A stretch of 58,196 nt of DNA, taken from positions 1 to 58,196 of the forward strand of contig CAYYQY010000004.1 of the NCBI GenBank assembly GCA_964473905.1, written 5' to 3'. This stretch comes from an uncultured Dehalococcoidales bacterium. Its GTDB lineage: Bacteria > Chloroflexota > Dehalococcoidia > Dehalococcoidales > CAYYQY01. Below are positions 7,561-51,664 of the stretch, in pieces. Under the pieces are notes generated by a model. The model made no database searches. It was not told the DNA's origin and saw only the letters and a program-made list of their open reading frames with translations. Position numbers and translations under genes: made by a program. Within the stretch, counting starts at the first letter, position 1, and each line of letters opens with the position of its first letter.

Positions 7561-7627
7561 TGCGTCAGGGAGGGTTTTACAAAATAATTATAACGATATA
7601 GATTTCAGCCAAGAATAAGTAATTTAA

Positions 7628-7660: not shown

Positions 7661-7714
7661 TATAGGAAAAAATAAACTCAATCAGCAGCCCTGATAATAA
7701 GGAGGAGCCGTCAG

Positions 7715-8800: not shown

Positions 8801-8827
8801 TATAAATCAGAGTCAACAGTAATTATA

Positions 8828-11639: not shown

Positions 11640-11643
11640 TATA

Positions 11644-12153: not shown

Positions 12154-13007
12154 ACAAAATAATCAGTGCCGAAACCAAAATCTGCTGCGTTATGGGAGAG
12201 CCGGTAGCACATTCGCTGTCACCCATAGTGCATAACTGTGGCTATGAGGTACTGGGACTAGACTTTGTCTATATTGCTTTTTCGGTTAATAATATAAGGC
12301 TGGCTATGGACGCCGTAAGGACACTCGGCATACGCGGAGCAAGCATTACCATACCGCATAAAATAAACGCTGTAAAATATATAGATGAGATGGATAATGC
12401 AGCTAAAGACACCGGCTCTATCAACACCGTGGTAAATAATAGCGGCCAACTGAGCGGTTTCAACACCGACTACGCCGCCGCGCTGAAGGCGCTGGAAGAA
12501 AAGACGGCACTTGCGGGGAAGCGGGTGATACTTGTCGGTGCTGGCGGCACTGCCCGGAGCATTGCCCAAGGACTTAAGGAGAAGGGCGCCCGGCTAACCA
12601 TCCTTAACCGCACCCCCGGAAGAGCTGAGGAACTGGCAAAAAAAGTGACAGCCGAAGGCTCCGGCGGCCTGGACGAATTGTCAGCGGTTGCCTCAAGTGA
12701 TATCCTGATTAACGCTACGCCGGTAGGGATGTGGCCCGATACTAATAAGTCAATCGTACCCGGCAACTTGCTGCACCCGTATCTCACCGTTTTTGATGTT
12801 AACTACCATCCCCTGGAGACCAGGCTGATTGCCGATGCCCGTGAAGCCGGATGTACTGTTGTCTACGGATATAAAATGTTCCTCTATCAGGCTGCTATGC
12901 AATTTGAGCTTTTTACCGACCACCCGGCACCGCTACCCGAGATGGAGGCTACTTTAACCAGGGCACTGGGAGGAGACGAGCATGATAAGATTAATAACGG
13001 CCGGTGA
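12150..13007 (+). CDS. aroE: Shikimate dehydrogenase
   Basis: HSLSPIVHN, SITIPHK, GFNTD, GAGGTA and NATPVGM motifs. Confidence 0.95.
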   Translation: MNKIISAETKICCVMGEPVAHSLSPIVHNCGYEVLGLDFVYIAFSVNNIRLAMDAVRTLGIRGASITIPHKINAVKYIDEMDNAAKDTGSINTVVNNSGQLSGFNTDYAAALKALEEKTALAGKRVILVGAGGTARSIAQGLKEKGARLTILNRTPGRAEELAKKVTAEGSGGLDELSAVASSDILINATPVGMWPDTNKSIVPGNLLHPYLTVFDVNYHPLETRLIADAREAGCTVVYGYKMFLYQAAMQFELFTDHPAPLPEMEATLTRALGGDEHDKINNGR

Positions 13008-18415: not shown

Positions 18416-18427
18416 AAAAAGATACAA

Positions 18428-18511
18428 AGGAGGCGGTCCATATGTAATTTGCGCACACATCTGGGGTTCATGAGTATATTTTGACTGCAAAATATACTGT
18501 TTGCGTCAAAA
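18428..18511 (+). promoter_or_regulatory. SD + start-stop element and overlapping inverted repeats
   Basis: AGGAGG-N8-ATG-TAA at 18428-18447; AGTATATTTTG/CAAAATATACT at 18473-98; alternative TTTTGAC-GCAAA/TTTGC-GTCAAAA at 18479-18511. Confidence 0.4.
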
Positions 18512-18555
18512 TGCTTAAAAAATATAGTCCAATTGCCCAAATCGAGGAGGTTATA

Positions 18556-20235
18556 ATGGCAATAGAACCCAGGGAAGATTATAGTTACTACGAGTTTTCT
18601 GAGGATGATGTAGACGATACCTGGTGGGTCTGGGATATGGGGCATACCCCACCCACCGCACCGTGGTCACCGATGTTTGTCCAGTGGTGGATGTACGGTG
18701 CTACCGTGCCCCTGGCCAAAGCACTGGAAGATGCGGCCACACCAAGATCCAAGGGCCCTCGCAGCCGGTCAAACCGCGGCTACCACATGGTGACAGTCGC
18801 CGTGCCTCACAACGAAGAGGAGATACAGGAACGCAGCGAGAGGTACCGGCAAGCGGTTCTGCCCTGGCTTCAGGATACAGACAAGATACTGAACGAAATT
18901 AAAGCCGAGCTATCGGGAGTATACGAGAAGTACAAGAACTATAACTACGCCACAGCCAGCTGGAGCGAACTGATAGAATGGGTCCATGACTGGGAGCTAT
19001 TCAACTACCGTCACTGGTACCTGCACTTCTGGGCAATGGTATCCACCGGCGCTATCTTTGTTGACTGGGAGAACCTGAGCTACGAGCTACTGGGAATGGA
19101 CGCTCATCATCCCACGTTCCAGAGACTGATGAGAGGCTTTGACAACACCAACTTCGAGACCGAGAGACAGCTTCACGCGATAGCGCAGAAGGTCACTGAC
19201 GCGGGGCTAAAGGACATGGTAGTCAGCAGCAGTCCCGGAGAAATAATGGGTAAGCTGCTGGGCAGTGAAGCCGGCAAGCGCGTGCTCGCCGATTTTAACA
19301 AGTTCCTGGACAAGTATGGCTGGCGTAACTTCATGATGGACACCTACATGACACCCAGCTGGAGAGAGGACACATCACCGGCATGGCAGCGTATCCAGCA
19401 GTTTGTTAACCACCCCACCTTCAAACTGGATGAGATTATAGTTAAGCAAGCCGCGGAAAGAAAACTGGCAGAAGAAGAAATAGTAAACGCGCTGCCGGTT
19501 GACCAGAGAGAATGGTACCGCATACTTATGAAAGCAGGACAGGTAGCCAGTGTCTGGGCAGAAGACCACAGCTTCTTCTTTGAGATGCAGTCGCACTCAA
19601 TAGGCCGCTACTTCTGGCTGGAAGTGGGTAAGAGGCTCGTCGCCACCGGCGCTATTGAGCAACCTGATGACATCTTCATGCTGGTACCGCAGGAAGTATC
19701 CATATTGCTTTCCGACCCCTACAAGTGCAAAGCCAAGAAGAAGGCAAAAGCCCGCAGAGCCGAGTGGGACGCTGCCAAATCCTTCTTCCCCGAACCGTAC
19801 TATGGCAGAATTCCTCAGCCCGATGCCATGATGGAGATGATGGCCTCACAGGATGTCATCTTCACCAAGGTAACCCAGGAGAAACCGCCCGAGCCCAGAC
19901 CGGAACTCAAGGCTGACCTCATTGGCGTATCCGGCTCACCGGGTATCGCCGAGGGCATCGCCCGCGTCATAATGTCACCGGCCCAGATGGGCGAAGTACA
20001 GGAAGGCGAAATACTGGTAGCCCCCATCACAGACTCAACCTGGACTCCTGTCTTCAGTATAATCAAGGGAGTAGTGCTGAACACCGGCGCTCCGCTGTGC
20101 CACGCCGCTATTATTGCCCGCGAGTATGGCCTGGCCGCCGTGGTCAACACCGTTGAAGGCACTGACAAGATAAAGACAGGACAGCGAGTCAGGGTAGACG
20201 CTGACGTCGGCGCTGTTTACATACTGGATAAATAA
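18556..20235 (+). CDS. ppsA: Phenylphosphate synthase alpha-like subunit (PEP-utilising mobile His domain + N-terminal helical domain)
   Basis: C-terminal GVSGSPG..EG and GAPLCHAAIIAREYG phospho-His motif; no ATP-grasp or pyruvate-binding barrel; GAGGAGG RBS before ATG 18556. The symbol refers to phenylphosphate synthase, not PEP synthase. Confidence 0.8.
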   Translation: MAIEPREDYSYYEFSEDDVDDTWWVWDMGHTPPTAPWSPMFVQWWMYGATVPLAKALEDAATPRSKGPRSRSNRGYHMVTVAVPHNEEEIQERSERYRQAVLPWLQDTDKILNEIKAELSGVYEKYKNYNYATASWSELIEWVHDWELFNYRHWYLHFWAMVSTGAIFVDWENLSYELLGMDAHHPTFQRLMRGFDNTNFETERQLHAIAQKVTDAGLKDMVVSSSPGEIMGKLLGSEAGKRVLADFNKFLDKYGWRNFMMDTYMTPSWREDTSPAWQRIQQFVNHPTFKLDEIIVKQAAERKLAEEEIVNALPVDQREWYRILMKAGQVASVWAEDHSFFFEMQSHSIGRYFWLEVGKRLVATGAIEQPDDIFMLVPQEVSILLSDPYKCKAKKKAKARRAEWDAAKSFFPEPYYGRIPQPDAMMEMMASQDVIFTKVTQEKPPEPRPELKADLIGVSGSPGIAEGIARVIMSPAQMGEVQEGEILVAPITDSTWTPVFSIIKGVVLNTGAPLCHAAIIAREYGLAAVVNTVEGTDKIKTGQRVRVDADVGAVYILDK

Positions 20236-20315
20236 AGTCGGGTAAAAGCGATAAGTACCATGCCGGTTGCGGCAGCGATATTGGTGCCGGGTATGGCTGG
20301 CTAATTGCTAACGAA

Positions 20316-20351
20316 GGGTAGCCCTTTGTATTTGGGTGCAAAGGGCTACCC
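20316..20351 (+). promoter_or_regulatory. Intercistronic stem-loop
   Basis: GGGTAGCCCTTTG/CAAAGGGCTACCC 13-bp perfect stem with no U-tract. Confidence 0.6.
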
Positions 20352-20377
20352 GGAAAGACCTGGGGGAGAGATAGAAA

Positions 20378-21823
20378 ATGGCATTTAAGGATTTGAGAGA
20401 TTACATTTCAGCACTGGAGCAACACGGACAATTAAAAAGAGTTGACAGGGAAGTCGATTGGAACATTGAAGCAGGGGCTATTTCCCGACTGGTTTATGAA
20501 AAAGGCCTGCCTTCTCCCCTCTTTGAAAATGTTACCGGTTATCCCGGATATAGACTTTTTGGTGCGCCAATCAGCACCTTTTCCAAACTTGCCATCGCTC
20601 TGGGGCTGGACCCGGAGACCAGCATTAAAGAATTAATTAATTTCTATCTGGAGAAAAAAAAGGATCTTGTTAAGCCAGTCTTCGTGGATAAAAGCCAGGC
20701 ACCCTGCAAGGAAAATATTGACATAGGTGACCAGGTTGACCTTATGAAATTCCCGTCACCCATGTTGCACGAGGGTGATGGCGGCAGGTATTTATGCACG
20801 TGGCATATTAACGTCTCCAAGGACCCCGATACGGGCTGGATAAACTGGGGTTGCTACCGGGCTATGGTGTCCGGCAAGAACACACTGACCGGCCCGGTGA
20901 GTCCGGCAAAACACATGGGTTCTCAATATCAAAAATACAAAGCGAAAAATATCCCGATGCCATTTGCCATTGCCATAGGTCCTGAACCCGTAAGCGGTTT
21001 TATAGCCGGAGCCAGGGTAGCCGCCAACCTTTACGAAGCCGAACTGGTCGGTGCGCTGAGGCAGGAACCGATAGAACTGGTCAAATGTGAAACCGTAGAT
21101 TTAGAGGTGCCGGCAGGTTCTGAAATCGTAATTGAGGGCGAGATATCCCTGACTGAGAAAGACTGGGAGGGACCTTTCGGCGAGTTTGTCGGTTACAGCG
21201 CTACAGGAAGAAACAAAGCGCCGGTATGGAACGTAAAAGCGATCACCTACCGTAACAACCCGATAATAACCATGTCCAACACCGGAGTGCCCGTGGATGA
21301 ATACCACCTTGACGTAGGTCTGGTCAGGTCGGCAGAGCTGTATAACAGGCTGCGTGCCGATGGTATCCCGGTGGTAGCCGTAAACGCACCGCCGGAGGGT
21401 GTTGGCTTCCTGGTTATCGTCAGCGTATCCGGTAACACACCGAATATCGCGGAGAAGGTTACTTCCAGTATCTGGAGTTCTCCCCAGGGATCAAACGCCC
21501 CCTTCGTTTTTGTGGTAAACGATGACGTGGACGTCTTTAATATATGGGAGGTCATGCATGCTATGGTCACCAAGTGCCATCCCTACCGTGATATCTGGAG
21601 AGTGGAGCGGGCCTCGGCCATACCGTTTATGACCTTTCTAAATGCCTACGAGAGGCAACACCGCCTAGGGGCCAAGGTCTACTTCGATTGTACCTGGCCT
21701 ACTGACTGGGACCCTGTATCAGAAATTCCGCCGAAGATATCCTTTGACGCTAATTACTCCCATGAAGTGAAAGAGCACGTCCTCAAAAACTGGGAGAACT
21801 ATGGCTTTATCAGGCTAGCCTAA
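20378..21823 (+). CDS. UbiD-family (de)carboxylase, phenylphosphate carboxylase-like large subunit
   Basis: DGGRY, NWGCYR, EGPFGEFVGY and GVPVDE. C-terminal FDCTWPTDW...NWENYGF resembles the Ppc clade as recalled. Confidence 0.88.
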   Translation: MAFKDLRDYISALEQHGQLKRVDREVDWNIEAGAISRLVYEKGLPSPLFENVTGYPGYRLFGAPISTFSKLAIALGLDPETSIKELINFYLEKKKDLVKPVFVDKSQAPCKENIDIGDQVDLMKFPSPMLHEGDGGRYLCTWHINVSKDPDTGWINWGCYRAMVSGKNTLTGPVSPAKHMGSQYQKYKAKNIPMPFAIAIGPEPVSGFIAGARVAANLYEAELVGALRQEPIELVKCETVDLEVPAGSEIVIEGEISLTEKDWEGPFGEFVGYSATGRNKAPVWNVKAITYRNNPIITMSNTGVPVDEYHLDVGLVRSAELYNRLRADGIPVVAVNAPPEGVGFLVIVSVSGNTPNIAEKVTSSIWSSPQGSNAPFVFVVNDDVDVFNIWEVMHAMVTKCHPYRDIWRVERASAIPFMTFLNAYERQHRLGAKVYFDCTWPTDWDPVSEIPPKISFDANYSHEVKEHVLKNWENYGFIRLA

Positions 21824-21837
21824 GGAGGCCGTTTAAG

Positions 21838-22077
21838 ATGTTTAGAGAAGGCTATGAGATTTATACGAGCAAGCTGGGACAGCTTGAGCAGGGTAAGGAA
21901 TTACAATTAGAAATCAGGGACGTCAAGACCTACCAGCCCAAGAAGGTCAAGGCAACAATATCCTCCTCCCCGGAAAAGCTGCCTGACGGTGAGTTACTAT
22001 GGGTAAGGGGCATGCTGGGCCCGTTACTTGACGGGAAACCGTGGCGGATTAAAATAATAAGCCAGGTCCAGTCTTAA
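21838..22077 (+). CDS. Phenylphosphate carboxylase gamma subunit-like protein
   Basis: 79 aa with pattern EQGKELQLEIRD...KVKATISS..EKLPD..LWVR..G......WRIKII, matching the small Phenyl_P_gamma family as recalled; directly follows the UbiD gene. Confidence 0.75.
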   Translation: MFREGYEIYTSKLGQLEQGKELQLEIRDVKTYQPKKVKATISSSPEKLPDGELLWVRGMLGPLLDGKPWRIKIISQVQS

Positions 22078-22149
22078 GCCCGGAGCGACTTCATAACGGG
22101 GAGGGGAATATTAGCTCAAGAGTGGAGATATTTATGGAGGTAATATACG

Positions 22150-23181
22150 ATGACAGAATCTAAATTGGTTTACTGGTTTGACGAGGTAGATTCCAGTTCT
22201 AACGAACTTGTGGGGAAGAAAGGGGCAAACCTGGGCGAGATGACTAAATTGGGTATGCCCATAGTCCCGGGATACGTGGTCTCGATTGAGTCATTCCGCA
22301 GGTTTATGACCGAGACAGGAGTCGGCGACAAGATTGCCAAATATGGGGACAGCCTTGGAAAACTCACTAACGTAGACCAGGGTGAAGAAGCCGGCAGGAC
22401 TATTCGCTCATGGATAATGGAAACAGAAGCACCGGACTACCTGAAGGAAGAAATAGGCTCGTACTACGATGCCCTCTGCGAAAAGACAGGCATACCGGAT
22501 GTCCGCGTATCAACAAGGTCAGGAGGGCCAACCAGCCGTCCGGGTATGTTTGATACCTACTTGAATGTCAGCGGCCGGGAAAATGTCATCCAGCATGTAA
22601 AGAAAGTATGGGCCAGTGTTTATACCGGGCGCGCCATCTGGTATCGCCAGGCTCATGATGTTCCCTTTGCATCTGATGTGCTCGGCGTTGTCGTGATGAA
22701 GCTGGTGGATGCCCGCTCCGCGGGTATTATCTTCACTGCCGACCCGGTAACGGGTGACAGGTCACGAATTATCGTTGATTCCAGCTGGGGCATGGGTGAG
22801 GGAGTCGTTGGTGCCCGGGTTGAAGTAGACCGGTTTATAGTGGACAAAGAGACCCTGAACGTGGTGGACAAGGTTATCGGTAAGAAAGTAATGCGCATCG
22901 CCTGCGGCGAGCATCTCATTGAAGAAAGAGCCGTGCCCCCTGAACTGCAAGAGATTCCCTGCTTATCCGATGAAGAGCTAAGAGAAGTAGCCAGGATTGC
23001 CAGATCGATGGAGGTAACGCTGGGCGAACCCCAGGACATGGAATGGGCACTGGACGGCGAAATAGCCTTCCCCAAGAATGTATTTTTCTTCCAGACCCGA
23101 CCGGAGAAATTTGCTACCAATAAAGAGACAACCGCCATCGACCGTCTGGCAGATATTATGGCAAAAAGGGCGACCCGATAA
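22150..23181 (+). CDS. ppsB: Phenylphosphate synthase beta-like subunit (PEP-synthase N-terminal ATP-binding domain)
   Basis: VGKKGANLGEM, DTYLNV, SSWGMGEGVV, QDMEWA and FFQTRP; ends without His or barrel domains. Confidence 0.82.
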   Translation: MTESKLVYWFDEVDSSSNELVGKKGANLGEMTKLGMPIVPGYVVSIESFRRFMTETGVGDKIAKYGDSLGKLTNVDQGEEAGRTIRSWIMETEAPDYLKEEIGSYYDALCEKTGIPDVRVSTRSGGPTSRPGMFDTYLNVSGRENVIQHVKKVWASVYTGRAIWYRQAHDVPFASDVLGVVVMKLVDARSAGIIFTADPVTGDRSRIIVDSSWGMGEGVVGARVEVDRFIVDKETLNVVDKVIGKKVMRIACGEHLIEERAVPPELQEIPCLSDEELREVARIARSMEVTLGEPQDMEWALDGEIAFPKNVFFFQTRPEKFATNKETTAIDRLADIMAKRATR

Positions 23182-23221
23182 ATCTTTCCTGAAGAGCAAT
23201 TTACCAGTAAGTTTACAGCCG

Positions 23222-23271
23222 GTACCCACTTAAGTTAACTTAACTTAACTAAGGTAAGCTTGAGTGGGTAC
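23222..23271 (+). repeat. Long inverted repeat enclosing a TTAAC triplet repeat
   Basis: GTACCCACTTAAG/CTTGAGTGGGTAC arms; TTAAC x3 at 23235-49. Confidence 0.6.
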
Positions 23272-23360
23272 TTGTTGTGTCACAAATTAGCTTTAAACCG
23301 GCATGACTACGCATGATACGGAACACGCTTATTGCAGGCACTAGAGAGAAGGAGTTTTAG

Positions 23361-24599
23361 ATGAGTGATAATATAGTAATTCTGGTAATGGCTGAGGAGA
23401 AATGGGAGGAGGCCGATTTCCTACGTAGTCATATTGAATCCCGGGGTTTTCAAACCCAGATCCTGGATATAGGCCTAGTTCTGGAACCCGATGGCCCCTG
23501 TGATATTACCCGCGAAGAGATAATAGCTCTCAGCGGCAGAGACCCGGCAGAGGTCGCCCAGCTTTACCGCGGCAAACGAATGCCGGTTATGGTAGCCGGA
23601 GCTATCAAGAAAGTGGGTGAGCTTTATGCCCAGGGAAAGATACAGGGCATAATCAGCATCGGTGGCACTACGGGTACTCAGATGGCAACCCAGATAATGC
23701 GGTCACTGCCCTTTGGTTTCCCCAAGTTTGGCGTCTCGGCGACAATATCGCTGCTCGGCTTCGCTTCCAGCGCTTTCGGTACCGGCGACATAACCATGAT
23801 GAACTCGGTAGTAGATTTTACCGGCGCTAAAAGCATAATGATGCGGAACGTGCTGGCACGAGCGGCCGGGGCTATCTGCGGTATGATAGAAGGCAGCGCC
23901 AAGGTGCCCATTACACTGCCGGGTAAAGATGAAAAACCGCTGGTAGCTATAACACAAATCGGGCTGGTAGAGATAGTAGCCTCAACTGTTAGAAAGATGC
24001 TTGAGGAGAAAGGATACCAGGTAGTTGCTTTCTCCGCCTCCGGTGTATGCGACCGGGCTATGGAGAAGATAATTGAGACCAATAACCTGTTCGGTGCCGT
24101 AATTGATATTACTCCAGCCGGAGTAGGTGAAGAGCTTTTCAACTTTGGCATGAAGTCAGGCCCCACCCGCCTTGAAGCCGCCGGTGAGGCAGGTATCCCG
24201 CAAATAATATCAATGGGCAAAGTAAATATAGGCTGCCCGATAAGCAGAAACTATGCGAAACACCCCGAGTACCGCGAGCGCAAGAAGTATGAATACGATG
24301 CAGCACGGACTTTTATACGCCTTACTGAGGACGAGCTTGTACAGGTAGCGGATGCGATGGCGGATAAGCTCAATAAAGCCAAAGGACCGGTTACAGTGAT
24401 TATACCGACGGGCGGCTGGTCTGCGGTTGATAAGAAAGGCACCGACTTCTATGATGGCGAACTGGACAGGGTGTTCGCCAGTGAGTTTAAGAAGAAGCTG
24501 AAACCGGAGATAGAGGTTATAGAAGCAGAGGGTGACCTTGATACCGCCGAGTTTGCTCAACACATCGTGACGGCATTTGAGAATATTATGGCCAAGTGA
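23361..24599 (+). CDS. Tm-1-like ATP-binding domain protein (UPF0261)
   Basis: GIISIGGTTGT, MRSLPFGFPK, DITMMNSVVD, EAAGEAGIPQ and FIRLTEDE; 412 aa. Confidence 0.85.
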   Translation: MSDNIVILVMAEEKWEEADFLRSHIESRGFQTQILDIGLVLEPDGPCDITREEIIALSGRDPAEVAQLYRGKRMPVMVAGAIKKVGELYAQGKIQGIISIGGTTGTQMATQIMRSLPFGFPKFGVSATISLLGFASSAFGTGDITMMNSVVDFTGAKSIMMRNVLARAAGAICGMIEGSAKVPITLPGKDEKPLVAITQIGLVEIVASTVRKMLEEKGYQVVAFSASGVCDRAMEKIIETNNLFGAVIDITPAGVGEELFNFGMKSGPTRLEAAGEAGIPQIISMGKVNIGCPISRNYAKHPEYRERKKYEYDAARTFIRLTEDELVQVADAMADKLNKAKGPVTVIIPTGGWSAVDKKGTDFYDGELDRVFASEFKKKLKPEIEVIEAEGDLDTAEFAQHIVTAFENIMAK

Positions 24600-35636: not shown

Positions 35637-35689
35637 GCTCATTCTTTGATGGGATATGATGTTTCGTGCTGATGCCGCCGCGGTAAGGC

Positions 35690-35932
35690 TTATACCTCGT
35701 CCCCTTCGGTCTCCCTGGGCTCAATAATGCGCCGTGCCACTTCGGCGTGTTGCTGCGGCACCTTTATTCTCACTTCTCCCAGGCCGTCTACCGCCACTCC
35801 GTAGACTATACCCGCACTCTCGTACTCCAGCAGGACAGGAATCCCCTCGCTCTCCAGGTGGGACTTGATAACGCTGGCAGTGAGCTCCCCCTGAACCGTA
35901 GAGATAACCACAAAACGCTGTTTGTCAGCCAC
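35690..35932 (-). CDS. DUF2007-type putative signal-transducing protein
   Basis: ASVIKSHLESEGIP and VRIKVP...AEVARRII. Confidence 0.8.
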   Translation of the reverse strand: MADKQRFVVISTVQGELTASVIKSHLESEGIPVLLEYESAGIVYGVAVDGLGEVRIKVPQQHAEVARRIIEPRETEGDEV

Positions 35933-36233
35933 CTAATGTCTCACCTGCTATATTTTCCGCTTAATATTCTGTTGCCAATAAGTTCCAAAAAAACTTATCA
36001 CGCCTGCACTTGCGGGTTATGTTATACCTTTGCCCGCAAACTGTCAACCATATAGCGTAATGCCCCTTATTTTCCCCCATCCGCAAATACGCATCCCGAC
36101 CAGCCCTGCCCCTTTAGCTATTTTTTATATGTATAACCTTCATGTTTATGCTTTGTTACGGTGACGGCCGGTAAGCTATATAAAGGAAAGCAAGAATAGT
36201 TAAAGGCCGATAGGCTCAGGGGGTAAAGCAACG

Positions 36234-36572
36234 ATGGCAATGGCATGGCCAAATAGTAGCGTAAAGCTCACCGGTTCCAGGCTGGATAGTAGCCGAGAAG
36301 AGCGGCATAACCTGCATATAAAAATCTCGTATATTGCCTTACAGCAGCTAGACCTCATCCTAACCGTTTTTGCCATATCTATCGGTCTCTCGGAACTGAA
36401 TCCCTTGATGAGAAACATGATTGATGCACCGCTGGAGCTATTTCTTACCAAGGTGGCTATTCCCTGCCTTATTGCCTGGCTTGTCCCCGCCAAACTGCTT
36501 ATTCCGGCTATTGCCCTGCTGCTCTTCGTTATTGGCTGGAACGTAAAAGAGCTCTTTCTCTACCTGATGTAA
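36234..36572 (+). CDS. DUF5658-like small membrane protein
   Basis: LDLILT...G..ELNPLM motif plus TM helices; start uncertain. Confidence 0.7.
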   Translation: MAMAWPNSSVKLTGSRLDSSREERHNLHIKISYIALQQLDLILTVFAISIGLSELNPLMRNMIDAPLELFLTKVAIPCLIAWLVPAKLLIPAIALLLFVIGWNVKELFLYLM

Positions 36573-36815
36573 CCCTATATGGCGGGCTAGGGCAGCCTCC
36601 CATCTCTAAACTATCACTTGGGTATTCTTTTCAGTACCGGGGGTAATATATACTAACGGCGCCTAACTGTTGCCCCTCCGCAAGACAGCCTGTACGGTCA
36701 CATAAGCCATTAATAAACCCCAAACCCTTGCCTTCACTTAAGACTACGTTTACAAAAACCTGTCTGTAATGGATAAAAGGGCTCCTCCCTACCCGTAAAT
36801 TAAAGCCCAGAGAGG

Positions 36816-36844
36816 TTGACAAAACCACACCTGCCCCTTAAAGT
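36816..36844 (+). promoter_or_regulatory. Sigma70-type promoter of the osmoprotectant ABC operon
   Basis: TTGACA-N17-TAAAGT. Confidence 0.55.
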
Positions 36845-42554: not shown

Positions 42555-43583
42555 ATGTATATCACGAGCAAAGTGGATTTCAGCTTATCCGTAGACGGGA
42601 TGATTGGGGAAATCGAGGTTTACGGCATAACTGAGAAAATGAAAAGCTACGCTCTGGAGAAGCTGTCTACCGCCGACGAGCTTTGTCTTGACTACCCTGT
42701 CTCCGTTTTACCCCCGAGCAAGTTCTTTATGCCTCCCCGGGAATCTTTAATTACGTTCAGTCTAATCTCAGATACCGAAGTACATCACAGCCTGAAGGCA
42801 AAACCGTCCGTTATAATCGGTATTCACCCTTTTGACCTGCACGCGGTCAAGCTTTCAGACTCCGTGTTTCTGGGTAAACATATTGACGTAAACTACAGGG
42901 CAAGGCGTAGCGCCACCGCCATTATCGGTATTGACTGCCTAAACCCGTGGCCGTTCAGCTTTGCTTCCAGCATGGGAACAACCACGCCCCCGGATATTTT
43001 TGACCTGTGGCTTACCGACCTGGGCAATGACTACCTGATTGAGGTGGGCTCAAGTAAAGGTGACGACCTTATAAAAAAATATTTTGATGCCAGGAAGGCA
43101 AGCGACGCCTGTATACAGCAGCGGGAGAAGCTTCGCGAGGATGCTTTGGAGAAATATCAGCTGCACCTGGATATGCCTTTTCAGGAAATACCACGGATAC
43201 TGGAGGCTTCCTGGGAGAGCCCCATGTGGAAAGAGTTGGGGCAAAAGTGTTTTTCGTGCGGCTCGTGTACCATGGTCTGCCCGACCTGCGTCTGTTTTAA
43301 TGTGCGGGATAAAATTGATTTGAAACTTACCGAGGGCGAGCGCCGCCGCTACTGGGACAGCTGCATGTTCCAGGACTTTGCCATCGTAGCCAGCGGTGAA
43401 AACTTCAGGCCTACCGGCACCGACAGGCTAAGGCACCGTTTATATCGTAAAGGCAAATACATGTTAGACCGCTGGGGCGAGCTGGGCTGTGTGGGGTGTG
43501 GACGCTGTATTAACGCCTGTCTGGTAGATATCGCCAGCCCCGTTGCCGCCTATAACCGCCTAGCCGGGGAGGTGGGGCAATGA
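42555..43583 (+). CDS. Group 3b hydrogenase/sulfhydrogenase beta subunit (4Fe-4S, AsrA-like)
   Basis: CFSCGSCTMVCPTCVC and CVGCGRCINAC motifs. Confidence 0.88.
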   Translation: MYITSKVDFSLSVDGMIGEIEVYGITEKMKSYALEKLSTADELCLDYPVSVLPPSKFFMPPRESLITFSLISDTEVHHSLKAKPSVIIGIHPFDLHAVKLSDSVFLGKHIDVNYRARRSATAIIGIDCLNPWPFSFASSMGTTTPPDIFDLWLTDLGNDYLIEVGSSKGDDLIKKYFDARKASDACIQQREKLREDALEKYQLHLDMPFQEIPRILEASWESPMWKELGQKCFSCGSCTMVCPTCVCFNVRDKIDLKLTEGERRRYWDSCMFQDFAIVASGENFRPTGTDRLRHRLYRKGKYMLDRWGELGCVGCGRCINACLVDIASPVAAYNRLAGEVGQ

Positions 43584-44428
43584 CCTTAAGCGCTGATACC
43601 GAAGAATCAATCTATATACCCAAACTGGCGGAAATCCTCCAAGTAGACGTCCTCTCCGCTACAGAGAGGCTGTACCGGCTGCAATTTACGGACGGAAGTC
43701 ACCTGACACATGTTCCCGGCCAGTTTGTTGAGGTTTCCGTGATGGGTATGGGCGAGGCGCCAATCTCCATCTCTTCGTCGCCTACCCGGGATGCTTCCTT
43801 TGAGATTGGAGTCAGGACAATTGGCAACGTAACCCACGGCATACACCGGCTCCACCCCGGTGATACCATGGGTATCCGGGGCCCTTTTGGCAACGGATTT
43901 CCGGTACCCGAGCTTATCGGACGCGACTTACTCTTTGTGGCTGGTGGCATCGGCGTTTTACCGCTGCGCTCCATGATACAGTATGCGCTGGACAAACGCG
44001 AGCAGTTTGGCAGAATAATCCTGCTCTACGGGTGCCGTCAGCCGGCGGCGCAACTCTTCCCGGAAGAGCTTAATAGAATGCGTAATAGACCGGATATAGA
44101 ACTGCTGGAATCGATAGACCACTGCCCCTTTCACGTAGCCTGGCACGGCAGTGTTGGCGTAATAACCACGCTTTTCCCCAAAGTAACCCTTGAACCCGAA
44201 AAAACAACGGCCCTCATAGTCGGCCCGCCGGTAATGTACCGCTATGTTGCCGCCGAGTGTCTCAAGAAGGGCATAGCCAAAAACCAGATATTGATGTCGC
44301 TTGAGCGCCGGATGAAATGCGGTATAGGCTTATGCGGGCACTGCCAGATAAACAACGTATACGTTTGCCAGGACGGCCCGGTATTCAGCTACGAGGAACT
44401 GAGCAAGCTCAAGGAGACAGAGGTATGA
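43580..44428 (+). CDS. Group 3b hydrogenase gamma subunit (FAD/NAD(P)-binding, 2Fe-2S)
   Basis: PGQFV, IRGPFGNGF, VAGGIG and MKCGIGLCGHC...CQDGPVF motifs. Confidence 0.9.
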   Translation: MTLSADTEESIYIPKLAEILQVDVLSATERLYRLQFTDGSHLTHVPGQFVEVSVMGMGEAPISISSSPTRDASFEIGVRTIGNVTHGIHRLHPGDTMGIRGPFGNGFPVPELIGRDLLFVAGGIGVLPLRSMIQYALDKREQFGRIILLYGCRQPAAQLFPEELNRMRNRPDIELLESIDHCPFHVAWHGSVGVITTLFPKVTLEPEKTTALIVGPPVMYRYVAAECLKKGIAKNQILMSLERRMKCGIGLCGHCQINNVYVCQDGPVFSYEELSKLKETEV

Positions 44429-45165
44429 AAATAAAGATTGCTGTCTTCGATTTTACCGGCTGTGAAGGCTGCGAGCTTCAGATACTTAACTGCGAAGAAG
44501 AAATGCCCGACCTGTTAGCCGCCTTTGACATCGTCAACTTCAGGGAGGCAATAACAGATAAAGGTAACTATTACGATGTAGCCTTTATTGACGGCGCCTG
44601 CTCCCGGGAATCGGAGATTGCCCGGCTGCATGAAATCAGGGAGAGGGCAAAAAGGGTAATACCCATCGGCGCCTGTGCCTCTCTGGGCGGAGTCAACTGT
44701 CTGAGGAACTCTTACAGCACGGTTGACGCCCTTACAGCCGTTTACGGCGAGAGCGCTAATTACTATGACTCCATTCCCGCCCGGCCAATATCTGCGGTGA
44801 TACCTATAGACTTCTTCATCCCGGGCTGCCCTATTCAAAAAGAGGACTTTATACGTGCTTTACAGGCGATACTCATCAGTAAACTACCGGAACAGTACAA
44901 TAATCCCGTCTGCGCCGAGTGCAAGATGGCCGGTAATACCTGTGTCTTTGAGAAGGGAATGACCTGCCTGGGCCCGGTAACACGCGGCGGTTGCCACGCT
45001 ACCTGTGTTACCGGCGGCGCTACCTGCTGGGGCTGCCGGGGCTTCATTGACGACCCTAACGTAAACGCGGAGAAGGAAATACTGGAGAAGGCCGGCCTGT
45101 CCGTAGCCGAGATAATGAACAGGTTTAGCCTGTTTAATACCTTCCAGGAGAGCATATGGAAGTGA
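44425..45165 (+). CDS. Group 3b hydrogenase small (delta) subunit
   Basis: TGCEGC, GACA, PGCP, CAEC, CLGPVT and CWGC; ATGA overlap with gamma. Confidence 0.9.
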   Translation: MKIKIAVFDFTGCEGCELQILNCEEEMPDLLAAFDIVNFREAITDKGNYYDVAFIDGACSRESEIARLHEIRERAKRVIPIGACASLGGVNCLRNSYSTVDALTAVYGESANYYDSIPARPISAVIPIDFFIPGCPIQKEDFIRALQAILISKLPEQYNNPVCAECKMAGNTCVFEKGMTCLGPVTRGGCHATCVTGGATCWGCRGFIDDPNVNAEKEILEKAGLSVAEIMNRFSLFNTFQESIWK

Positions 45166-46427
45166 AGAAGATTGAAATAGGTGTCCGCCACCTTACCAGA
45201 GTGGAGGGGCACGGCAACATAATAGTCAGGGCTCATGACGGGCAGATAGACGAAGTGACCTGGGCAGTAACGGAATCGCCCCGTTTCTTTGAAGTCATGC
45301 TCAGGGGAAGACCCTGGTATGACGCTCACGTGCTGGCCTCCCGTATCTGCGGCATCTGTAGCGTATCTCATCAAATAGCATCCATAAAAGCCACTGAGGC
45401 TGCTTTCGGCCTAAAACCCTCGGAGCAGACCGTATTATTAAGAAAGCTCCTCTACGCCGGTGAAGTCATAGAAAGCCACATTCTCCATATCTACCTGCTC
45501 GCCCTGCCGGATTTCCTGGGCGTGCCGAGTGCCTTCGCCCTCATGGAATCACACAAAGATGCCGTCCTGTGCGGCCTGCGTCTGAAAAAGCTGGGTAACG
45601 ATATCATGGAGACTATCGGCGGACGGGCGGTGCACCCTCAGGCGGCTATAGTTAACGGTTTCGGACGGCTCCCCGGTAAAGAGCAGCTGTTATCAATCAA
45701 GACCCGGTTACAGGAGGCACTGCCGGACATGGCAGCCACGGTAGATCTGTTCCAGAGCCTGGTCTTGCCGGATTTTACCCGTGAAACCGAGTATATCTCG
45801 CTCAAACATCCCGATGAATATACCTTCACCGATGGTGACATAGCCTCTACCGACACCGGTATCACCAGCGTGGACAATTACCTGGACGTTACCAATGAAT
45901 ACTGTGTGCCTCAATCTACGGCCAAGTATACCAAGAATGCCCGGGAGTCCTTCATGGTCGGGGCACTAGCCAGAATCAATAATAACTACGAGCAGCTTAA
46001 CCCTCAGGCTAAAGAGGCAGCTGACCGGCTGGGGCTAAAACCACTGTGTACCAATCCCTTCCTGAACACCCCGGCACAGGTTGCCGAGACCACTCATGAA
46101 ATTGAGGAGTCAATCGCTATCATTGACCGGCTGCTTGAGACGGGTATTCAGGCCGAAGACAGGACGGTCAAGGTAAAGGCCGGACGCGGCATCGGCGCTG
46201 TTGAAGCCCCGCGCGGACTACTAATACATGATTATACCTACGACGAAAACGGCAATATTGTTCAAGCCAACTGTGTCGTCCCCACCAACGAAAATCACGC
46301 CAATATCCAGCTTGACCTGGAATCTCTAGTCCGCGATAACCTGGAGAAGGGACCAGATGAGCTCCAGTTACTCTGCGAAATGCTGGTCAGGGCGTACGAC
46401 CCGTGTATCAGCTGCTCCACACACTAG
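45156..46427 (+). CDS. Group 3b [NiFe]-hydrogenase large (alpha) subunit
   Basis: TRVEGHG, L1 RICGIC, EAPRG and L2 DPCISCSTH followed immediately by stop. Confidence 0.93.
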   Translation: MEVKKIEIGVRHLTRVEGHGNIIVRAHDGQIDEVTWAVTESPRFFEVMLRGRPWYDAHVLASRICGICSVSHQIASIKATEAAFGLKPSEQTVLLRKLLYAGEVIESHILHIYLLALPDFLGVPSAFALMESHKDAVLCGLRLKKLGNDIMETIGGRAVHPQAAIVNGFGRLPGKEQLLSIKTRLQEALPDMAATVDLFQSLVLPDFTRETEYISLKHPDEYTFTDGDIASTDTGITSVDNYLDVTNEYCVPQSTAKYTKNARESFMVGALARINNNYEQLNPQAKEAADRLGLKPLCTNPFLNTPAQVAETTHEIEESIAIIDRLLETGIQAEDRTVKVKAGRGIGAVEAPRGLLIHDYTYDENGNIVQANCVVPTNENHANIQLDLESLVRDNLEKGPDELQLLCEMLVRAYDPCISCSTH

Positions 46428-47059
46428 CCTCAATACAGGCCATGCAATACTGATCCGTACAGTAACTTGCTATTCCGCTTACCCACATAATTATAGTTTA
46501 TCCTTTCATTCTCGTTATAACGCAAGGTATTGACAACCCGATAAATAAGGGGTGAATTATAGTCTTAACTTATACATTAAAACCTATATAGTACAACTGT
46601 AGTATTCGCTTTATAAGTACGCCAGCAGAGCACCTGAATTTTGCTGACCATGATTATGGTTGGCAATTTCTTGTAATTCATATAACCCGGATTTCAGGGT
46701 AATAAGTACATAAGTGAAACTACCGATAGCATACATAAGCATATTTAAATCTCGTGAGTTAAAATCTCTGAACTTAAGAGATAGCGAGTTACGCCCCTTA
46801 ACATGTCCCGCACTCTGCCTGAACAGCCTGCCGTCTTTAAGACCAATTTTACCAGACCTTTATACCGCCATCCGTCACCGGATAAAAGCGCTGATTATTA
46901 CCGGCCATACAGCCGGGCTTCTAAACGATAATGCAAAAATTACCCCCGCCAGATATATCCACACCATTTCAATTAAGATTACCGGCTCCTACCCGTCAGG
47001 GCAACAACTGCTAATCACAGATAACCCTAACATGTATTGAAATATGGAGTAACTTGATT

Positions 47060-47644
47060 ATGGCTCAAGAAGTAAAAGAAGGGGGAAACAAAGAAGCATT
47101 CAAGGTCGAATATGAAGCTGTCAGGTATGATAATCTACCCCTGGTAATAAAAATTATCTTTGTTCTATTAACCGTTGTCGGTATTGGTCTCGCCGTGGCA
47201 TTTATGTTTTCCATCAGTATAGAGGGGAAAACCCTCTCCAATACCGGCTACTATTACCTGCTCTTTGCGCTCTTTGGCTCAGCTATCTTCCTGATACTGC
47301 CGCTGCGCAAAAAAGGCAAGACAAAATTGCCCTGGTACGACATATTGATTGCAGTGATAGCCTTTGCTATCCCCATGTACTTTTTTACCAATAGTTTTAA
47401 AATTCAGCAGGTAGGCTGGATCCCGGCACCGTCCAACTTCATTTTTACACTGGCGCTGGTACACTGCTTTATCATGCTCGAGGCTGCCCGCAGGATGGGC
47501 GGCATTATTTTTTTCTCACTGTGTATAGTACTCTGGATGTACCCTCTTTACGCCAGCCACATGCCCGGCATTTTCTACGGCATAACCAGAGCCATTACCG
47601 TGGCCGGCCCCGGCGGCGCCATGATAAAGATTTTTGATTGCTAG
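47060..47644 (+). pseudogene. Truncated TRAP transporter 4TM/12TM fused permease
   Basis: N-terminal TM helices with LPWYD and LEAARR.GG, but only about 195 aa; no partner SBP gene. Confidence 0.65.
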
Positions 47645-48213: not shown

Positions 48214-48648
48214 TTGGATGAAGCTGTAAACAGGGAAGAACGCATAAACGATAATATTACCGAGCTTATAGCAAGAGAAAAAAATGACCCGGTAGCCTCA
48301 TTTCTTGGCATGAGCATGCAGGAGCTAAGCCCGGGATACGCCAGGATAGCGATGGAGGTTAAACCGGAATACCTGAACTTCCAGGGTCTGGTGTTCGGCG
48401 GTATTATCATGGCACTGGCCGACCAGGCTTTTGGCTACGGCTGTAACTCTATCTATTACCCCAGTGTAGCCACTCAGTTCAACACCCATATCCTGGCCGC
48501 CGCCCAGACAGGAGACCGGCTCATTGCCGAATGCCGGGTGGTAAAGAGCGGGCGGCGCGTGGGCCTGTCCGAGATAACGGTCACCAACCAGGAAGGCAAA
48601 CTCATTGCCAAAGCCACCGGCACCAGCATTCCGGCGGGGGAGCAGTAG
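48214..48648 (+). CDS. PaaI-family hotdog-fold thioesterase
   Basis: NFQGLVFGG...LADQAFG and GRRVG. Confidence 0.88.
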   Translation: MDEAVNREERINDNITELIAREKNDPVASFLGMSMQELSPGYARIAMEVKPEYLNFQGLVFGGIIMALADQAFGYGCNSIYYPSVATQFNTHILAAAQTGDRLIAECRVVKSGRRVGLSEITVTNQEGKLIAKATGTSIPAGEQ

Positions 48649-48803: not shown

Positions 48804-48832
48804 TTGACATTAGTATACTGAACGTATAAAAT
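48804..48832 (+). promoter_or_regulatory. Sigma70-type promoter of the tail-tube gene
   Basis: TTGACA-N17-TAAAAT, 39 nt before the TTG start. Confidence 0.7.
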
Positions 48833-48870
48833 TTTGCCAGAAGTCTATTATAAAAACAGGGGGGATTACT

Positions 48871-49473
48871 TTGAAAAAGAAATGGCACTATCTGGTCGGC
48901 GCCGGCGTGTGTCTAACCCTGGTTCTATCGGGGATGCTGGCTATGGCACTAATCGGGACTTTAGCAGGAACACCGGTCCTGCCAGCTAACCCGGCGCAGG
49001 CTGCCGGCTCTATTACAACCGACCGAGGGGCCGCCGATATGGGAGACCCGCTAGCAGGATATACCTTCTTGCTGGAGATTGAGGGTAAAACAGCCGGTTA
49101 CTTCACGGAATGCAGCGGCCTTGGTTCCGAGAACTGGGTTATCGAACAGAAAATGACTGATGAAGACGGGAACGCAATCTACTGCAAGATACCGGGACGG
49201 TTAAAATGGTCCAATATTATCCTCAAACGGGGCATCACTGCCAATATGGATATGTGGGACTGGAGGCAGGAGGTAACAGACGGCGAGATGGAGGCTGCGC
49301 GGACAAATGGCTCTATTATTATGCTGGACAGGAATATGGAACCCGTAGCGCAGTGGGACTTTGAAGACGGCTGGCCCTGCCGGATAGCCGGAGCCTATGT
49401 GGCAGCCGACTTAAACGAGAGCGTTATCGAGGAGATAGAAATAGCCCACGAGGGGCTGACACGCGTTGAATAG
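48871..49473 (+). CDS. T4 gp19/eCIS-type tail tube protein with N-terminal signal peptide-like extension
   Basis: DPL..Y.FLLEI, FTECSGL, KIPGRLKWSNIILKRG, WDWR, R.NGSI.MLD, W.F..GWP and IEEIEIAHE. Preceded by MKKKW, a ~20-residue hydrophobic stretch and PAQA/A. Confidence 0.88.
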   Translation: MKKKWHYLVGAGVCLTLVLSGMLAMALIGTLAGTPVLPANPAQAAGSITTDRGAADMGDPLAGYTFLLEIEGKTAGYFTECSGLGSENWVIEQKMTDEDGNAIYCKIPGRLKWSNIILKRGITANMDMWDWRQEVTDGEMEAARTNGSIIMLDRNMEPVAQWDFEDGWPCRIAGAYVAADLNESVIEEIEIAHEGLTRVE

Positions 49474-49504: not shown

Positions 49505-49533
49505 TTGACAATTTAAATATATTATGTTAGAAT
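49505..49533 (+). promoter_or_regulatory. Sigma70-type promoter of the acyl-CoA ligase/LIV operon
   Basis: TTGACA-N17-TAGAAT with extended -10 TG. Confidence 0.75.
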
Positions 49534-49564
49534 TCTCTATCTTCGTTCATAGTAAACTATTATA

Positions 49565-49657
49565 ATGAAGCACCTGATTAAGAGTACGGAGCAACGCAAT
49601 TTCATCTTTATCAAGCGCACCGGAGTGCGCTTGAGGAGGTTAGATACTGGTAAATAA
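49565..49657 (+). CDS. Candidate attenuator leader peptide MKHLIKSTEQRNFIFIKRTGVRLRRLDTGK
   Basis: 30-codon ORF; the FIFI codons (49601-12) abut hairpin TCAAGCGCAC/GTGCGCTTGA (49611-34). Confidence 0.55.
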   Translation: MKHLIKSTEQRNFIFIKRTGVRLRRLDTGK

Positions 49658-49698
49658 TCGGGTTATTAGCGAAAAATAAGCGATTAGTTCTTGGATTG

Positions 49699-49728
49699 AA
49701 GTGCCTCCCGGGCGGGAGGTGCTTTTTT
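49699..49728 (+). terminator. Attenuator terminator ahead of the acyl-CoA ligase/LIV operon
   Basis: AAGTGCCTCCC-gggc-GGGAGGTGCTT followed by a T run; lies between the promoter and the first gene. Confidence 0.8.
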
Positions 49729-49771
49729 GTACTTTCCGGTCAGGCAAAGGAGCAGGTGCATTAAAACTGCC

Positions 49772-51664
49772 ATGGATAATCTGGATACGATACCTAAACT
49801 GGTTACGGGTAACCGTGAGAAATGGGGCGAGCGCCCGGCCATGTGTATGAAACGGATGGGTATATGGCAGCGCTACAGCTGGCAGGAATACTACGATACC
49901 GTCAAGTATTTCTCCCTGGGTCTGATTAGTCTGGGACTCAAACCGGGAGACGTGGTCTGCATTATCGGCGACAACGAGCCGGAGTGGTTCTGGGGAGCCT
50001 TTGCCACACAGGCTGCCGGAGGCATTGTCACCGGTATTTTCGTTGACTCCATCCCCTCCGAGGTAAAATACATCGCCGAGCACTCGGGCGCCAGGTTCGC
50101 CGTCGTCAACGACCAGGAGCAGACAGATAAGTTCCTGGAGATCAAGGACGAACTGCCGGTACTGGTAAAGGTCATCTACTGGGATCCCAAAGGGCTGAAA
50201 AACTATGACGACCCGCTCATAACCAGCTTTATAGATGTAGTAGAGCTGGGTAAAGAGTACGGTAAGACACATGAGGGTCTATTTGAAGAGAATGTAGGTA
50301 ACGGCAGGGAAGACGATATTGCCTTTATCTACTATACCTCGGGAACCACCGGCTTGCCCAAGGGAGCACTGCTTACCCACCGCGCGCTGGTAAATACGGC
50401 GCGGGGTTTCGTTGTCCGCTATCCGCTGAGCGAAAACGACGACCTGATGTCCAATTTCCCGGCGGCGTGGGTAGGCGACAGCTTTTTTGCCACCATTCCT
50501 CACCTGCTTACCGGCGCCAGATTAAACTTCCCCGAAGAACCGGAGACCATAGCCGAAGATACGCGCGAGGTTGGCCCCAACTTCGTCATCTACGGCCCGC
50601 GGCAGTGGGAGGAGGTAGTCAGCACTATCCAGGTAAAGATGATTGATGCCCACCCCCTAAAACGCCTGGCCTATAAACTCTTCCTGCCGGTAGGCAGAAA
50701 AATAGCCGATATGAGCTTCGCCGGGCAGAGACCGAATATCTTCTGGCGGGCTCTGCATACCATCGCCCATCTCCTCCTGTTCCGGCCCTTAAAAGACCAA
50801 CTGGGTCTCAACAATGTGAGATTCGCCGTTACCGGCAGCTCCGTTCTCAGCCTGGACACCTTTCAGTTAATACACGCTATCGGCATTGAGCTGAGACAGA
50901 ACTACGCCGGTACCGAAGCCGGTTTCATATCTTCCCACGGCAAAGGGGAGATTAGATTTGAAAGCGTGGGGCGGCCAGCTGTAGGCGTCAGCGTTAGAAT
51001 AACCGACAGAGGAGAGCTCCTCGTCAAAAGCGACTGCATGTTTACCGGCTACTTCAAAGATGATATTAAGACAGAGGCCGCATTAAAAGACGGCTGGTGC
51101 CAAACCGGGGACGCCGTCCACATTAATGAGGATGGTCATTTAATCTTCCTAGACCGCCTGGAACATATGAGAGAGCTCAGCTCGGGCACCAAATATGCTC
51201 CCCAGTATATAGAAGGCAGACTCCGTTTCAGCCCTTACATAAAAGATGCCATGGTCATCGGCGATAAAGATAAGGGATTTGTCTCGGCGCTAATCAACAT
51301 AGATTTTACCATGGTGGGTAAATGGGCGGAAAGCAACAGTATCCCCTACACCACTTTTGTTGATTTATCCCAGAAACAGGAGGTCGCCGACCTGGTGCGC
51401 AAGGACCTGCTGCGGGTAAACGGCTACCTGCCCGAAGCCGCCCGGGTAAAAAAATTCGCCCTGCTGCATAAGGAATTTGACCCGGACGAGGCCGAGCTTA
51501 CCCGCACCCGGAAGCTGCGACGGGATTTCATGGAGGAACGTTATAAATACTTGATTGATGGCATGTACCAAGACGACCAGAAGATAACGGTAAATGCGCC
51601 GGTAACCTATAGAGACGGTAGAAAAGGCACGGTCAGCACCGATATCGAGGTAAGGAGTATCTGA
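49772..51664 (+). CDS. Long-chain acyl-CoA synthetase (FadD-like, ABC-associated type)
   Basis: YTSGTTGLPKG, NYAGTE, TGDAV, PQYIEGRLRFSPYI and ELTRTRKLRR motifs. Confidence 0.92.
   Translation: MDNLDTIPKLVTGNREKWGERPAMCMKRMGIWQRYSWQEYYDTVKYFSLGLISLGLKPGDVVCIIGDNEPEWFWGAFATQAAGGIVTGIFVDSIPSEVKYIAEHSGARFAVVNDQEQTDKFLEIKDELPVLVKVIYWDPKGLKNYDDPLITSFIDVVELGKEYGKTHEGLFEENVGNGREDDIAFIYYTSGTTGLPKGALLTHRALVNTARGFVVRYPLSENDDLMSNFPAAWVGDSFFATIPHLLTGARLNFPEEPETIAEDTREVGPNFVIYGPRQWEEVVSTIQVKMIDAHPLKRLAYKLFLPVGRKIADMSFAGQRPNIFWRALHTIAHLLLFRPLKDQLGLNNVRFAVTGSSVLSLDTFQLIHAIGIELRQNYAGTEAGFISSHGKGEIRFESVGRPAVGVSVRITDRGELLVKSDCMFTGYFKDDIKTEAALKDGWCQTGDAVHINEDGHLIFLDRLEHMRELSSGTKYAPQYIEGRLRFSPYIKDAMVIGDKDKGFVSALINIDFTMVGKWAESNSIPYTTFVDLSQKQEVADLVRKDLLRVNGYLPEAARVKKFALLHKEFDPDEAELTRTRKLRRDFMEERYKYLIDGMYQDDQKITVNAPVTYRDGRKGTVSTDIEVRSI

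Follow-up and report, generated by a model that had tools for sequence, protein, structure and literature searches.

Introduction

To our knowledge, all characterized homologues of tail-tube proteins, i.e., those of phage tails, tailocins, eCISs, and the Hcp protein of the T6SS, are made and assembled in the cytoplasm. Canonical tubes, e.g., those of T4, Afp, and PVC, polymerize only on a baseplate or a tube initiator, together with a tape measure and a cap. Hcp forms rings in vitro without a sheath, and in the T6SS effectors are bound within the lumen of these rings; the protein is cytoplasmic and leaves the cell via the T6SS and not via Sec. The contractile injection systems (CISs) of Anabaena (tCIS) and Streptomyces (CisA) are reportedly anchored in the membrane as whole machines from the cytoplasmic side, either via extensions of the sheath or baseplate or via an accessory protein. 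Searches of the literature yielded no description of tube proteins bearing an export signal; a paper among the matches mentions gp19 only as a PVC component.

The current study deals with a tube gene in a stretch of 58,196 nucleotides from an uncultured Dehalococcoidales bacterium, which is referred to as the window in the following. A first-pass annotation based on the sequence alone had described the gene as a solitary tail-tube gene with a classic signal peptide and had proposed that the tube has been repurposed independently of a contractile machine.

Results

The tube domain and its canonical relatives

The gene is an uninterrupted ORF of 200 aa that starts with TTG and extends on the plus strand from position 48871 to 49473, including the stop codon. 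Its product is a predicted exported tube-like protein, whose residues 57 to 200 (49039 to 49470, plus strand) represent a CIS inner-tube domain of the gp19/Afp1/Pvc1 type. The Pfam family PF06841 (Phage_T4_gp19) matches residues 64 to 197 over model positions 3 to 134 of 134 (E value of 5.3e-29; 101.2 bits versus a curated cutoff of 28.2), and TIGR02241 matches residues 59 to 198 (E value of 2e-27; 95.5 bits versus a cutoff of 62.4). The scores for the NCBIfam equivalogs CIS1_fam (31.1; cutoff of 220) and CIS5_fam (64.5; cutoff of 260) are far under their cutoffs, and PHROGs gave a weak match to "tail tube protein." Matches to PDB sequences (phmmer) are CIS inner tubes, i.e., those of AlgoCIS (7adz), the Anabaena tCIS (7b5h), and Streptomyces CIS as well as Pvc1 and Afp1. 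In an AlphaFold model based on an alignment of 71 sequences, the pLDDT of the domain is mostly 80 to 95, with two 10-residue blocks at 66 to 70; residues 5 to 27 are modeled as a helix of low confidence, and residues 27 to 60 are predicted to be disordered (pLDDT of <50). The top 14 PDB matches in Foldseek are chains of the CIS tube family with a probability of 1.0, followed by Hcp and phage tubes. The TM-scores against the CIS tube chains are only 0.5, probably because the hairpin and the N-terminal extension of the monomer model differ from the assembled state. The first-pass annotation was thus right in recognizing an intact tube gene with a full-length domain. Canonical tubes share 62 alignment columns with a conservation of at least 90%; the window protein keeps 54 of them, and apart from a single one-column gap there are essentially no indels, from which we infer that the domain has probably preserved its assembly potential.

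The closest unextended homologues are Anaerolineae/Chloroflexota proteins of about 148 aa with 58 to 60% identity. The gene for one of them, P0014, directly follows that of the sheath and belongs to a complete eCIS locus with the gene order Pvc16_N, sheath, tube1, DUF6760, tube2, CIS_tube, VgrG, gp25, and PAAR. Comparison with the eCIS locus L054 showed 59% identity of the window protein to the sheath-adjacent tube1 and 32% to tube2. The GTDB genome scan with the window protein recovered no extended members but canonical CIS loci only, and these served as controls: the sheath or other CIS genes lie near the unextended tube gene in 44 of 46 genome loci, and the same holds for CIS genes in about 70 of 73 JGI metagenome loci. 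The N-terminal extension is absent from the canonical tubes of all 46 genome and all 73 metagenome loci. No relative was present in the IMG/VR scan, the only match among the INPHARED phage genomes was Bacillus phage BCD7 (30% identity), and the matches on plasmids are ordinary eCIS loci.

The N-terminal extension

Hydropathy, homology, and the structural model identify residues 1 to 44 (48871 to 49002, plus strand) as a predicted export signal, which may be a Sec signal peptide of unusual length or else act as an N-in signal anchor. The n-region MKKKWH has a charge of +3 (+2 or more in the relatives) and is followed by an uncharged run of 46 residues, whose best 19-residue hydropathy window reaches 2.24. 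The hydrophobic stretch comprises between 23 aa (the predicted helix of residues 5 to 27) and 31 aa (Y7 to L37). The c-region P-A-N-P-A-Q-A44, in which AQA corresponds to residues 42 to 44, combines small residues at -3 and -1 with an upstream helix breaker. The h-region of Sec signals typically comprises about 7 to 20 aa, and that of the tube protein exceeds this range. It is also atypically long in comparison with two lipoproteins encoded in the window, i.e., OpuAC and Peripla_BP_6 binding proteins, which have h-regions of about 17 to 22 aa and lipoboxes. The export signal, the charged n-region, and the AQA site of the first-pass annotation were accordingly retained, but its classic signal peptide with an h-region of about 20 aa was not. 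The N terminus of the window protein contains no RR and hence no twin-arginine motif. The conserved Cys14 was rejected as a sign of a lipoprotein, since its context, GAGVC, is not a lipobox.

Homologous extensions are found in at least 12 protein clusters (the window protein, P0002, P0046, P0277 to P0284, and P0125; also P0122, P0126, and P0133 of the representative library), so the feature is conserved in close homologues and not a peculiarity of the window protein. Y7 and A44 are invariant in the alignment and C14 is nearly so, and the position of the A/V/T-x-A motif is fixed in 12 of 12 clade members. The subsequent linker, which in the window protein consists of residues 45 to 56 (AGSITTDRGAAD; 49003 to 49038, plus strand) and is predicted to be disordered, varies in length and sequence among the relatives. 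Four close gene pairs differ by 24 synonymous and 19 nonsynonymous codon changes within the extension, which exceeds the synonymous share of unconstrained sequence. Both the homology in relatives and this ratio indicate that the extension is translated and selected and, as judged from these comparisons, real. The evidence on its fate is about evenly balanced: the conserved c-region motif (Pro...A/V/T-x-A) speaks for signal peptidase cleavage after A44, while the long conserved hydrophobic segment and the architecture of the relative P0121 (see below) would favor membrane anchoring.

Expression signals and residence in the genome

A Shine-Dalgarno-like GGGGGG (48859 to 48864, plus strand) is located 6 nt upstream of the TTG, as expected from the ribosome-binding site claimed in the first-pass annotation. 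The promoter that had been ascribed to the gene, TTGACA-17 nt-TAAAAT at 48804 to 48832 (plus strand), is present and agrees with the sigma-70 consensus at 11 of 12 positions, but it has to be regarded as a consensus match only, because the region contains 7 sites of equal kind compared with 1.9 expected from shuffles. Five other assemblies of this strain (L001 to L005) contain the same promoter-like sequence. These carry an identical tube locus and hence provide no polymorphism signal. The GC content of the tube gene (54%; GC3 of 61%) is the same as that of the neighboring genes, which together with the identical locus in the five assemblies characterizes it as a resident gene of the genome. 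An internal GAGGGG followed after 8 nt by the ATG of M57 (49025 to 49041, plus strand) is a possible alternative start for a signal-less form of 144 aa. A methionine at this position is absent from all 11 other aligned clade members, so that initiation at M57 could yield at best a lineage-specific, cytoplasmic second product.

Genomic context of the window gene

The tube gene is flanked by a 4HBT thioesterase gene on its 5' side (48214 to 48648) and, 3', by a gene for an AMP-binding ligase (49727 to 51664) followed by Liv-type ABC transporter genes, which agrees with the neighbors named in the first-pass annotation. The window as a whole represents chromosomal housekeeping DNA with genes for the shikimate pathway, phenylphosphate-synthase-like and UbiD-like proteins, TatC, SUF, ABC transporters, a four-gene NiFe hydrogenase, and acyl-CoA ligases. 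The best named matches of its chorismate synthase (AroC) are Dehalococcoidia/Chloroflexota MAG proteins with 70 to 71% identity, besides one protein from a "Deltaproteobacteria" MAG with 69%, and the taxon is accordingly a probable member of Chloroflexota/Dehalococcoidia. The Pfam matches of the roughly 47 ORFs scanned in the 58 kb are to housekeeping and metabolic families, with no other CIS gene among them, and when 16 proteins from a canonical eCIS locus of Chloroflexota were compared with the window by tblastn, the tube ORF was the sole match. The earlier statement on the missing sheath, baseplate, and spike genes was thereby borne out: within the window there is no gene for a sheath, baseplate (gp25, gp6/J), spike (VgrG), tube initiator, tape measure, or ATPase. 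Mobile-element, integrase, and phage genes, tRNAs, and Rfam families are likewise absent from the window; PADLOC recorded no defense match for the tube protein or its neighbors, and no effector-like or immunity-like gene adjoins the tube gene. The window contains only one gp19-like ORF and no ORF of >655 aa, and thus neither a second exported tube paralogue nor an Fn3/Ig surface protein.

Several further features of the window are worth recording. A promoter-like TTGACA-17-TAGAAT with a TG extension (49505 to 49533) lies ahead of the acyl-CoA ligase/Liv-type ABC operon, and the roughly 190-nt leader of this operon ends in a 12-bp GC-rich hairpin with a T-run (49698 to 49725) just before the ORF; the leader (49505 to 49726), which has no Rfam family match, is possibly an attenuator or riboswitch-like element. 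Two genes 5' of the tube gene, a 196-aa multipass membrane protein without a Pfam or PADLOC match is encoded (47054 to 47644), which is syntenic in L001 and L002. The soluble [NiFe]-hydrogenase cluster consists of four genes (Fer4, FAD/NAD-binding, small subunit, and large subunit; 42555 to 46427) and is kept upstream of the tube gene in other assemblies (L001). A complete shikimate/chorismate operon is located at 7715 to 14145. The cluster at 16754 to 24599 encodes an AMP-ligase, phenylphosphate-synthase-like PEP-utilizer and PPDK_N proteins, a UbiD-family carboxylase, and a UPF0261 protein, which suggests anaerobic activation of phenol or aromatic compounds. Three stretches of 0.6 to 1.5 kb (6140 to 7714, 35637 to 36844, and 46428 to 47053) contain no ORF of at least 120 aa and no Rfam match at the gathering threshold.

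A clade of exported tube-like proteins in CIS-free cassettes

The clade of exported tube-like proteins was defined by the homologous N-terminal extension and the WPCRI motif, both of which are present in the window protein. R171 and I172 of this motif are found in 12 of 12 aligned members and C170 in all but P0122, compared with WP(V/S)KV in canonical tubes. An alignment of the extended clade was used as the query of the metagenome scan. The named relatives belong to Dehalococcoidales, e.g., the MAG GCA_035529715.1 (contig DATKWF010000038.1), where the protein is annotated only as "phage tail protein." The genes of the extended clade members occur in two arrangements. In the first (L059 to L062, L064 to L066, and L007), genes for tubeA (194 to 195 aa) and tubeB (208 to 213 aa) are accompanied by a third one, whose 713-aa product has a Sec signal and contains Fn3-like repeats as well as a transmembrane (TM) anchor at its C terminus. 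The second (L056 to L058, L067, and L070; cf. P0126) combines a 195-aa tube with a 1000-aa protein, which consists of the shared N-terminal extension, gp19, HYDIN/ASH Ig-like and Big_1 domains, and a C-terminal TM segment; in L056 and P0126 this segment has an RRR tail. CIS genes gave 0 matches in seven JGI loci with extended tubes, and the clade is, on the basis of gene content, consistently CIS free at the loci examined.

Inspection of the homologues' neighborhoods, as recommended in the first-pass annotation, thus revealed cassettes with large Fn3/Ig-like surface proteins, and the extracellular architecture of these partners and fusions supports an extracytoplasmic location of the tube domain. 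The view of the window gene as a one-of-a-kind case had to be abandoned, as it belongs to this clade and many distant tube proteins also bear signals. In a neighbor-joining tree of 151 tube domains, the clade is not cleanly resolved, and the most recent common ancestor of the close clade takes in 5 unextended sequences. At least 22 changes of the export state were counted on the tree, compared with 51 when the states were shuffled. Given this topology and number of changes, neither a single origin nor a count of origins is claimed for the wider set. The cassettes apparently represent an undescribed family of exported tube proteins that are encoded beside large cell surface proteins and not beside injection-machine genes.

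Signal-bearing tube proteins beyond the clade

A profile search of 1.84 billion representatives yielded 5873 clusters. Among the best 150 of these, about 70 have Sec-, Tat-, or lipoprotein-type signals, which is a count and not a frequency, since the query profile included the extension and the ranking favors extended proteins. A hydrophobic signal at the N terminus was counted in 61 of the same best 150 clusters, and a twin-arginine motif, e.g., RRDFLK or RREFLK, in about 8 to 12. The tube proteins of the representative library with Tat signals are P0132, P0134, P0137, P0143, P0153, P0161, and P0207. If functional, such signals imply the export of a prefolded and possibly preassembled tube domain.

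Long contigs were available for three of these proteins. L144 (5798 to 10558) encodes a 1393-aa acidic lipoprotein (lipobox LLGGC) with a C-terminal gp19 domain and, immediately 3', a tube protein of 185 aa, whose signal peptide is of the textbook type (...SPSASA/ADP; the slash marks the cleavage site). The two constitute, as read from their architecture, a second, unrelated paired module of exported tubes. P0132 with its Tat signal is solitary, and at L145, in a spore-former context, the gene of a signal-bearing tube is located 5' of that for a 1839-aa Big_2-repeat protein. No CIS genes were found within 10 kb on either side of the L144, P0132, and L145 members. P0121 (435 aa) contains two TM-plus-tube units in one chain and an extra TM helix between them; this architecture could keep both tube domains outside and tethered to the membrane, or it could reflect a fused call of two tandem genes. 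Two further signal-bearing tubes, P0128 (180 aa) and P0157 (482 aa), may be another adjacent pair of a small and a large protein; the longest JGI contig was 7344 bp for both.

Discussion

A proposed extracytoplasmic descendant of an eCIS inner tube

Our preferred explanation, to which we assign a probability of roughly 60%, is that the product of the window gene is an extracytoplasmic protein that descends from the main inner tube of a Chloroflexota eCIS, is independent of a CIS, is exported via Sec, and forms rings at the cell surface. The intact and solitary tube gene, the predicted export signal, and the metabolic neighbors support a repurposing away from the contractile machine. This core of the first-pass interpretation has therefore survived, whereas the classic Sec peptide and the uniqueness of the case have not. 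An eCIS tube gene would have gained an N-terminal Sec-type export signal, left the CIS locus, and founded the clade of exported tube-like proteins, of which the window copy would be a solitary member. This copy would be transcribed from its own promoter and translated from the TTG at 48871; the corresponding features are present and their activity is presumed. A Sec-dependent insertion or export with the N terminus inside and the tube domain outside is suggested by the positive charge of the n-region and by the hydrophobic segment, as well as by the extracellular type of the partners and fusions; it would be followed by signal peptidase cleavage after A-Q-A44 or by retention of the segment as an N-terminal anchor. 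Judging by the conservation of the canonical positions, the tube domain may then self-assemble into hexameric rings or into short stacks of these, either on the external side of the membrane or within the envelope of the Chloroflexota cell, which is probably monoderm. In view of the gene neighborhood of the relatives, the protein would act as a structural component or scaffold of the cell surface, in the relatives together with a second tube paralogue and an anchored Fn3/Ig-like protein or fused to the latter. Since the window copy has neither a partner tube nor a large surface protein, it may function differently from the members of the cassettes.

Other explanations differ mainly in the fate of the exported protein or deny its export altogether. 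The cleaved protein might be released and polymerize into a long, free extracellular tube or filament that serves as a conduit, fiber, or scaffold. The tube domain is almost unchanged in comparison with polymerizing canonical tubes, the signal-peptidase-type A/V/T-x-A with its upstream proline is conserved in all clade members, and the tandem A and B paralogues of the relatives could stack on each other. However, a gene for a baseplate, an initiator, a tape measure, or a cap is found neither nearby in the window nor in the cassettes of the relatives, and the long conserved hydrophobic segment and the internal TM-tube units of P0121 point to tethering, so we regard the free filament as unlikely. 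Because no baseplate or initiator gene is present here, rings or short stacks are no less likely than a polymer. A nonstructural function of an exported ring, either as an Hcp-like carrier or chaperone that binds its cargo in the lumen or as a surface decoy against phage tails and tailocins, would be in line with the relationship of the Hcp and tube folds and with the effector binding of Hcp rings. It appears more doubtful still, given that PADLOC matched neither the protein nor its neighbors, that no effector-like or immunity-like gene is adjacent, and that the recurrent partners of the relatives are structural Ig/Fn3 proteins.

It is improbable that the extension is a start codon artifact and that the actual product is a cytoplasmic protein of 144 aa starting at M57, which serves a CIS encoded elsewhere. 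The GAGGGG 8 nt ahead of the ATG at 49039 is indeed present, the product would have the canonical length, and the absence of CIS genes refers to the 58-kb window; but the reading frame is open over the 56 upstream codons, which have homologous counterparts in at least 12 clusters without a methionine at this position, synonymous differences outnumber nonsynonymous ones within the extension, a strong Shine-Dalgarno sequence and a promoter-like site precede the TTG, and canonical tubes adjoin the sheath in 44 of the 46 genome loci and in about 70 of the 73 metagenome loci. The test posed by the first-pass annotation, i.e., whether close homologues lack the extension, thus turned out in favor of the long form, although the internal start signal exists. 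We give hardly any credence to a decaying, functionless relic of a lost eCIS or prophage locus. The solitary position without partner genes in the 58 kb would fit such a relic, but the ORF is intact with 54 of 62 conserved positions kept, the clade is conserved over divergent lineages with a derived motif of its own, the composition resembles that of host genes, and the window contains no mobile-element, integrase, or phage gene.

Beyond the window gene that we read as a surface-exposed eCIS tube descendant, tube-fold proteins exported via Sec, via Tat, or as lipoproteins might, more tentatively, be widespread CIS-independent building blocks of the cell surface, whose rings or short tubes oligomerize or anchor giant Ig/Fn3 proteins. 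If this is true, they would make up a new kind of envelope structure with its roots in phage tails, and the window gene would be its minimal, solitary representative. A tube lineage that is exported by general pathways without a sheath or baseplate would represent a new route of phage-part domestication. It would also point to a so far overlooked surface structure in Chloroflexota/Dehalococcoidia, of whose envelopes little is understood, as well as in other phyla. The sole current annotation of the family, "phage tail protein," is misleading for prophage and eCIS finders.

Comparison with known systems

The fold and the family of the window protein are known, while its predicted localization and its genomic context are new. 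With the inner tubes of eCISs (Afp1, Pvc1, AlgoCIS 7adz, Anabaena tCIS All3324 7b5h, and Streptomyces CIS) it shares the same full-length domain and predicted fold, and with tube1 of the Chloroflexota eCIS also 59% identity, the conserved positions, and the loop lengths. Compared with these tubes, it has an additional 56 residues of export signal and linker and substitutions of the WPCRI type, and its gene, unlike theirs, is not adjoined by sheath, baseplate, spike, tape measure, and ATPase genes. The T6SS protein Hcp has a distantly related tube fold (Foldseek E value of about 1e-5) with no sequence-level family match to the window protein, and it exits via the T6SS, whereas the window protein is predicted to be exported via Sec. 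The membrane-anchored CISs of Anabaena (tCIS) and Streptomyces (CisA) resemble the proposed arrangement in the attachment of a CIS-derived structure to the membrane; in these systems it is the whole contractile machine that is anchored, in contrast to the window, where it would be a tube subunit only, with a predicted location outside the membrane. The Dehalococcoidales cassettes share the N-terminal extension, the WPCRI motif, 46 to 60% identity of the tube domain, and the lack of CIS genes with the window protein, but they comprise either two tandem paralogues (about 195 and 208 aa) along with an Fn3-repeat protein of 713 aa that ends in a TM segment, or a 1000-aa fusion, whereas the window harbors a single gene amid genes of acyl-CoA metabolism.
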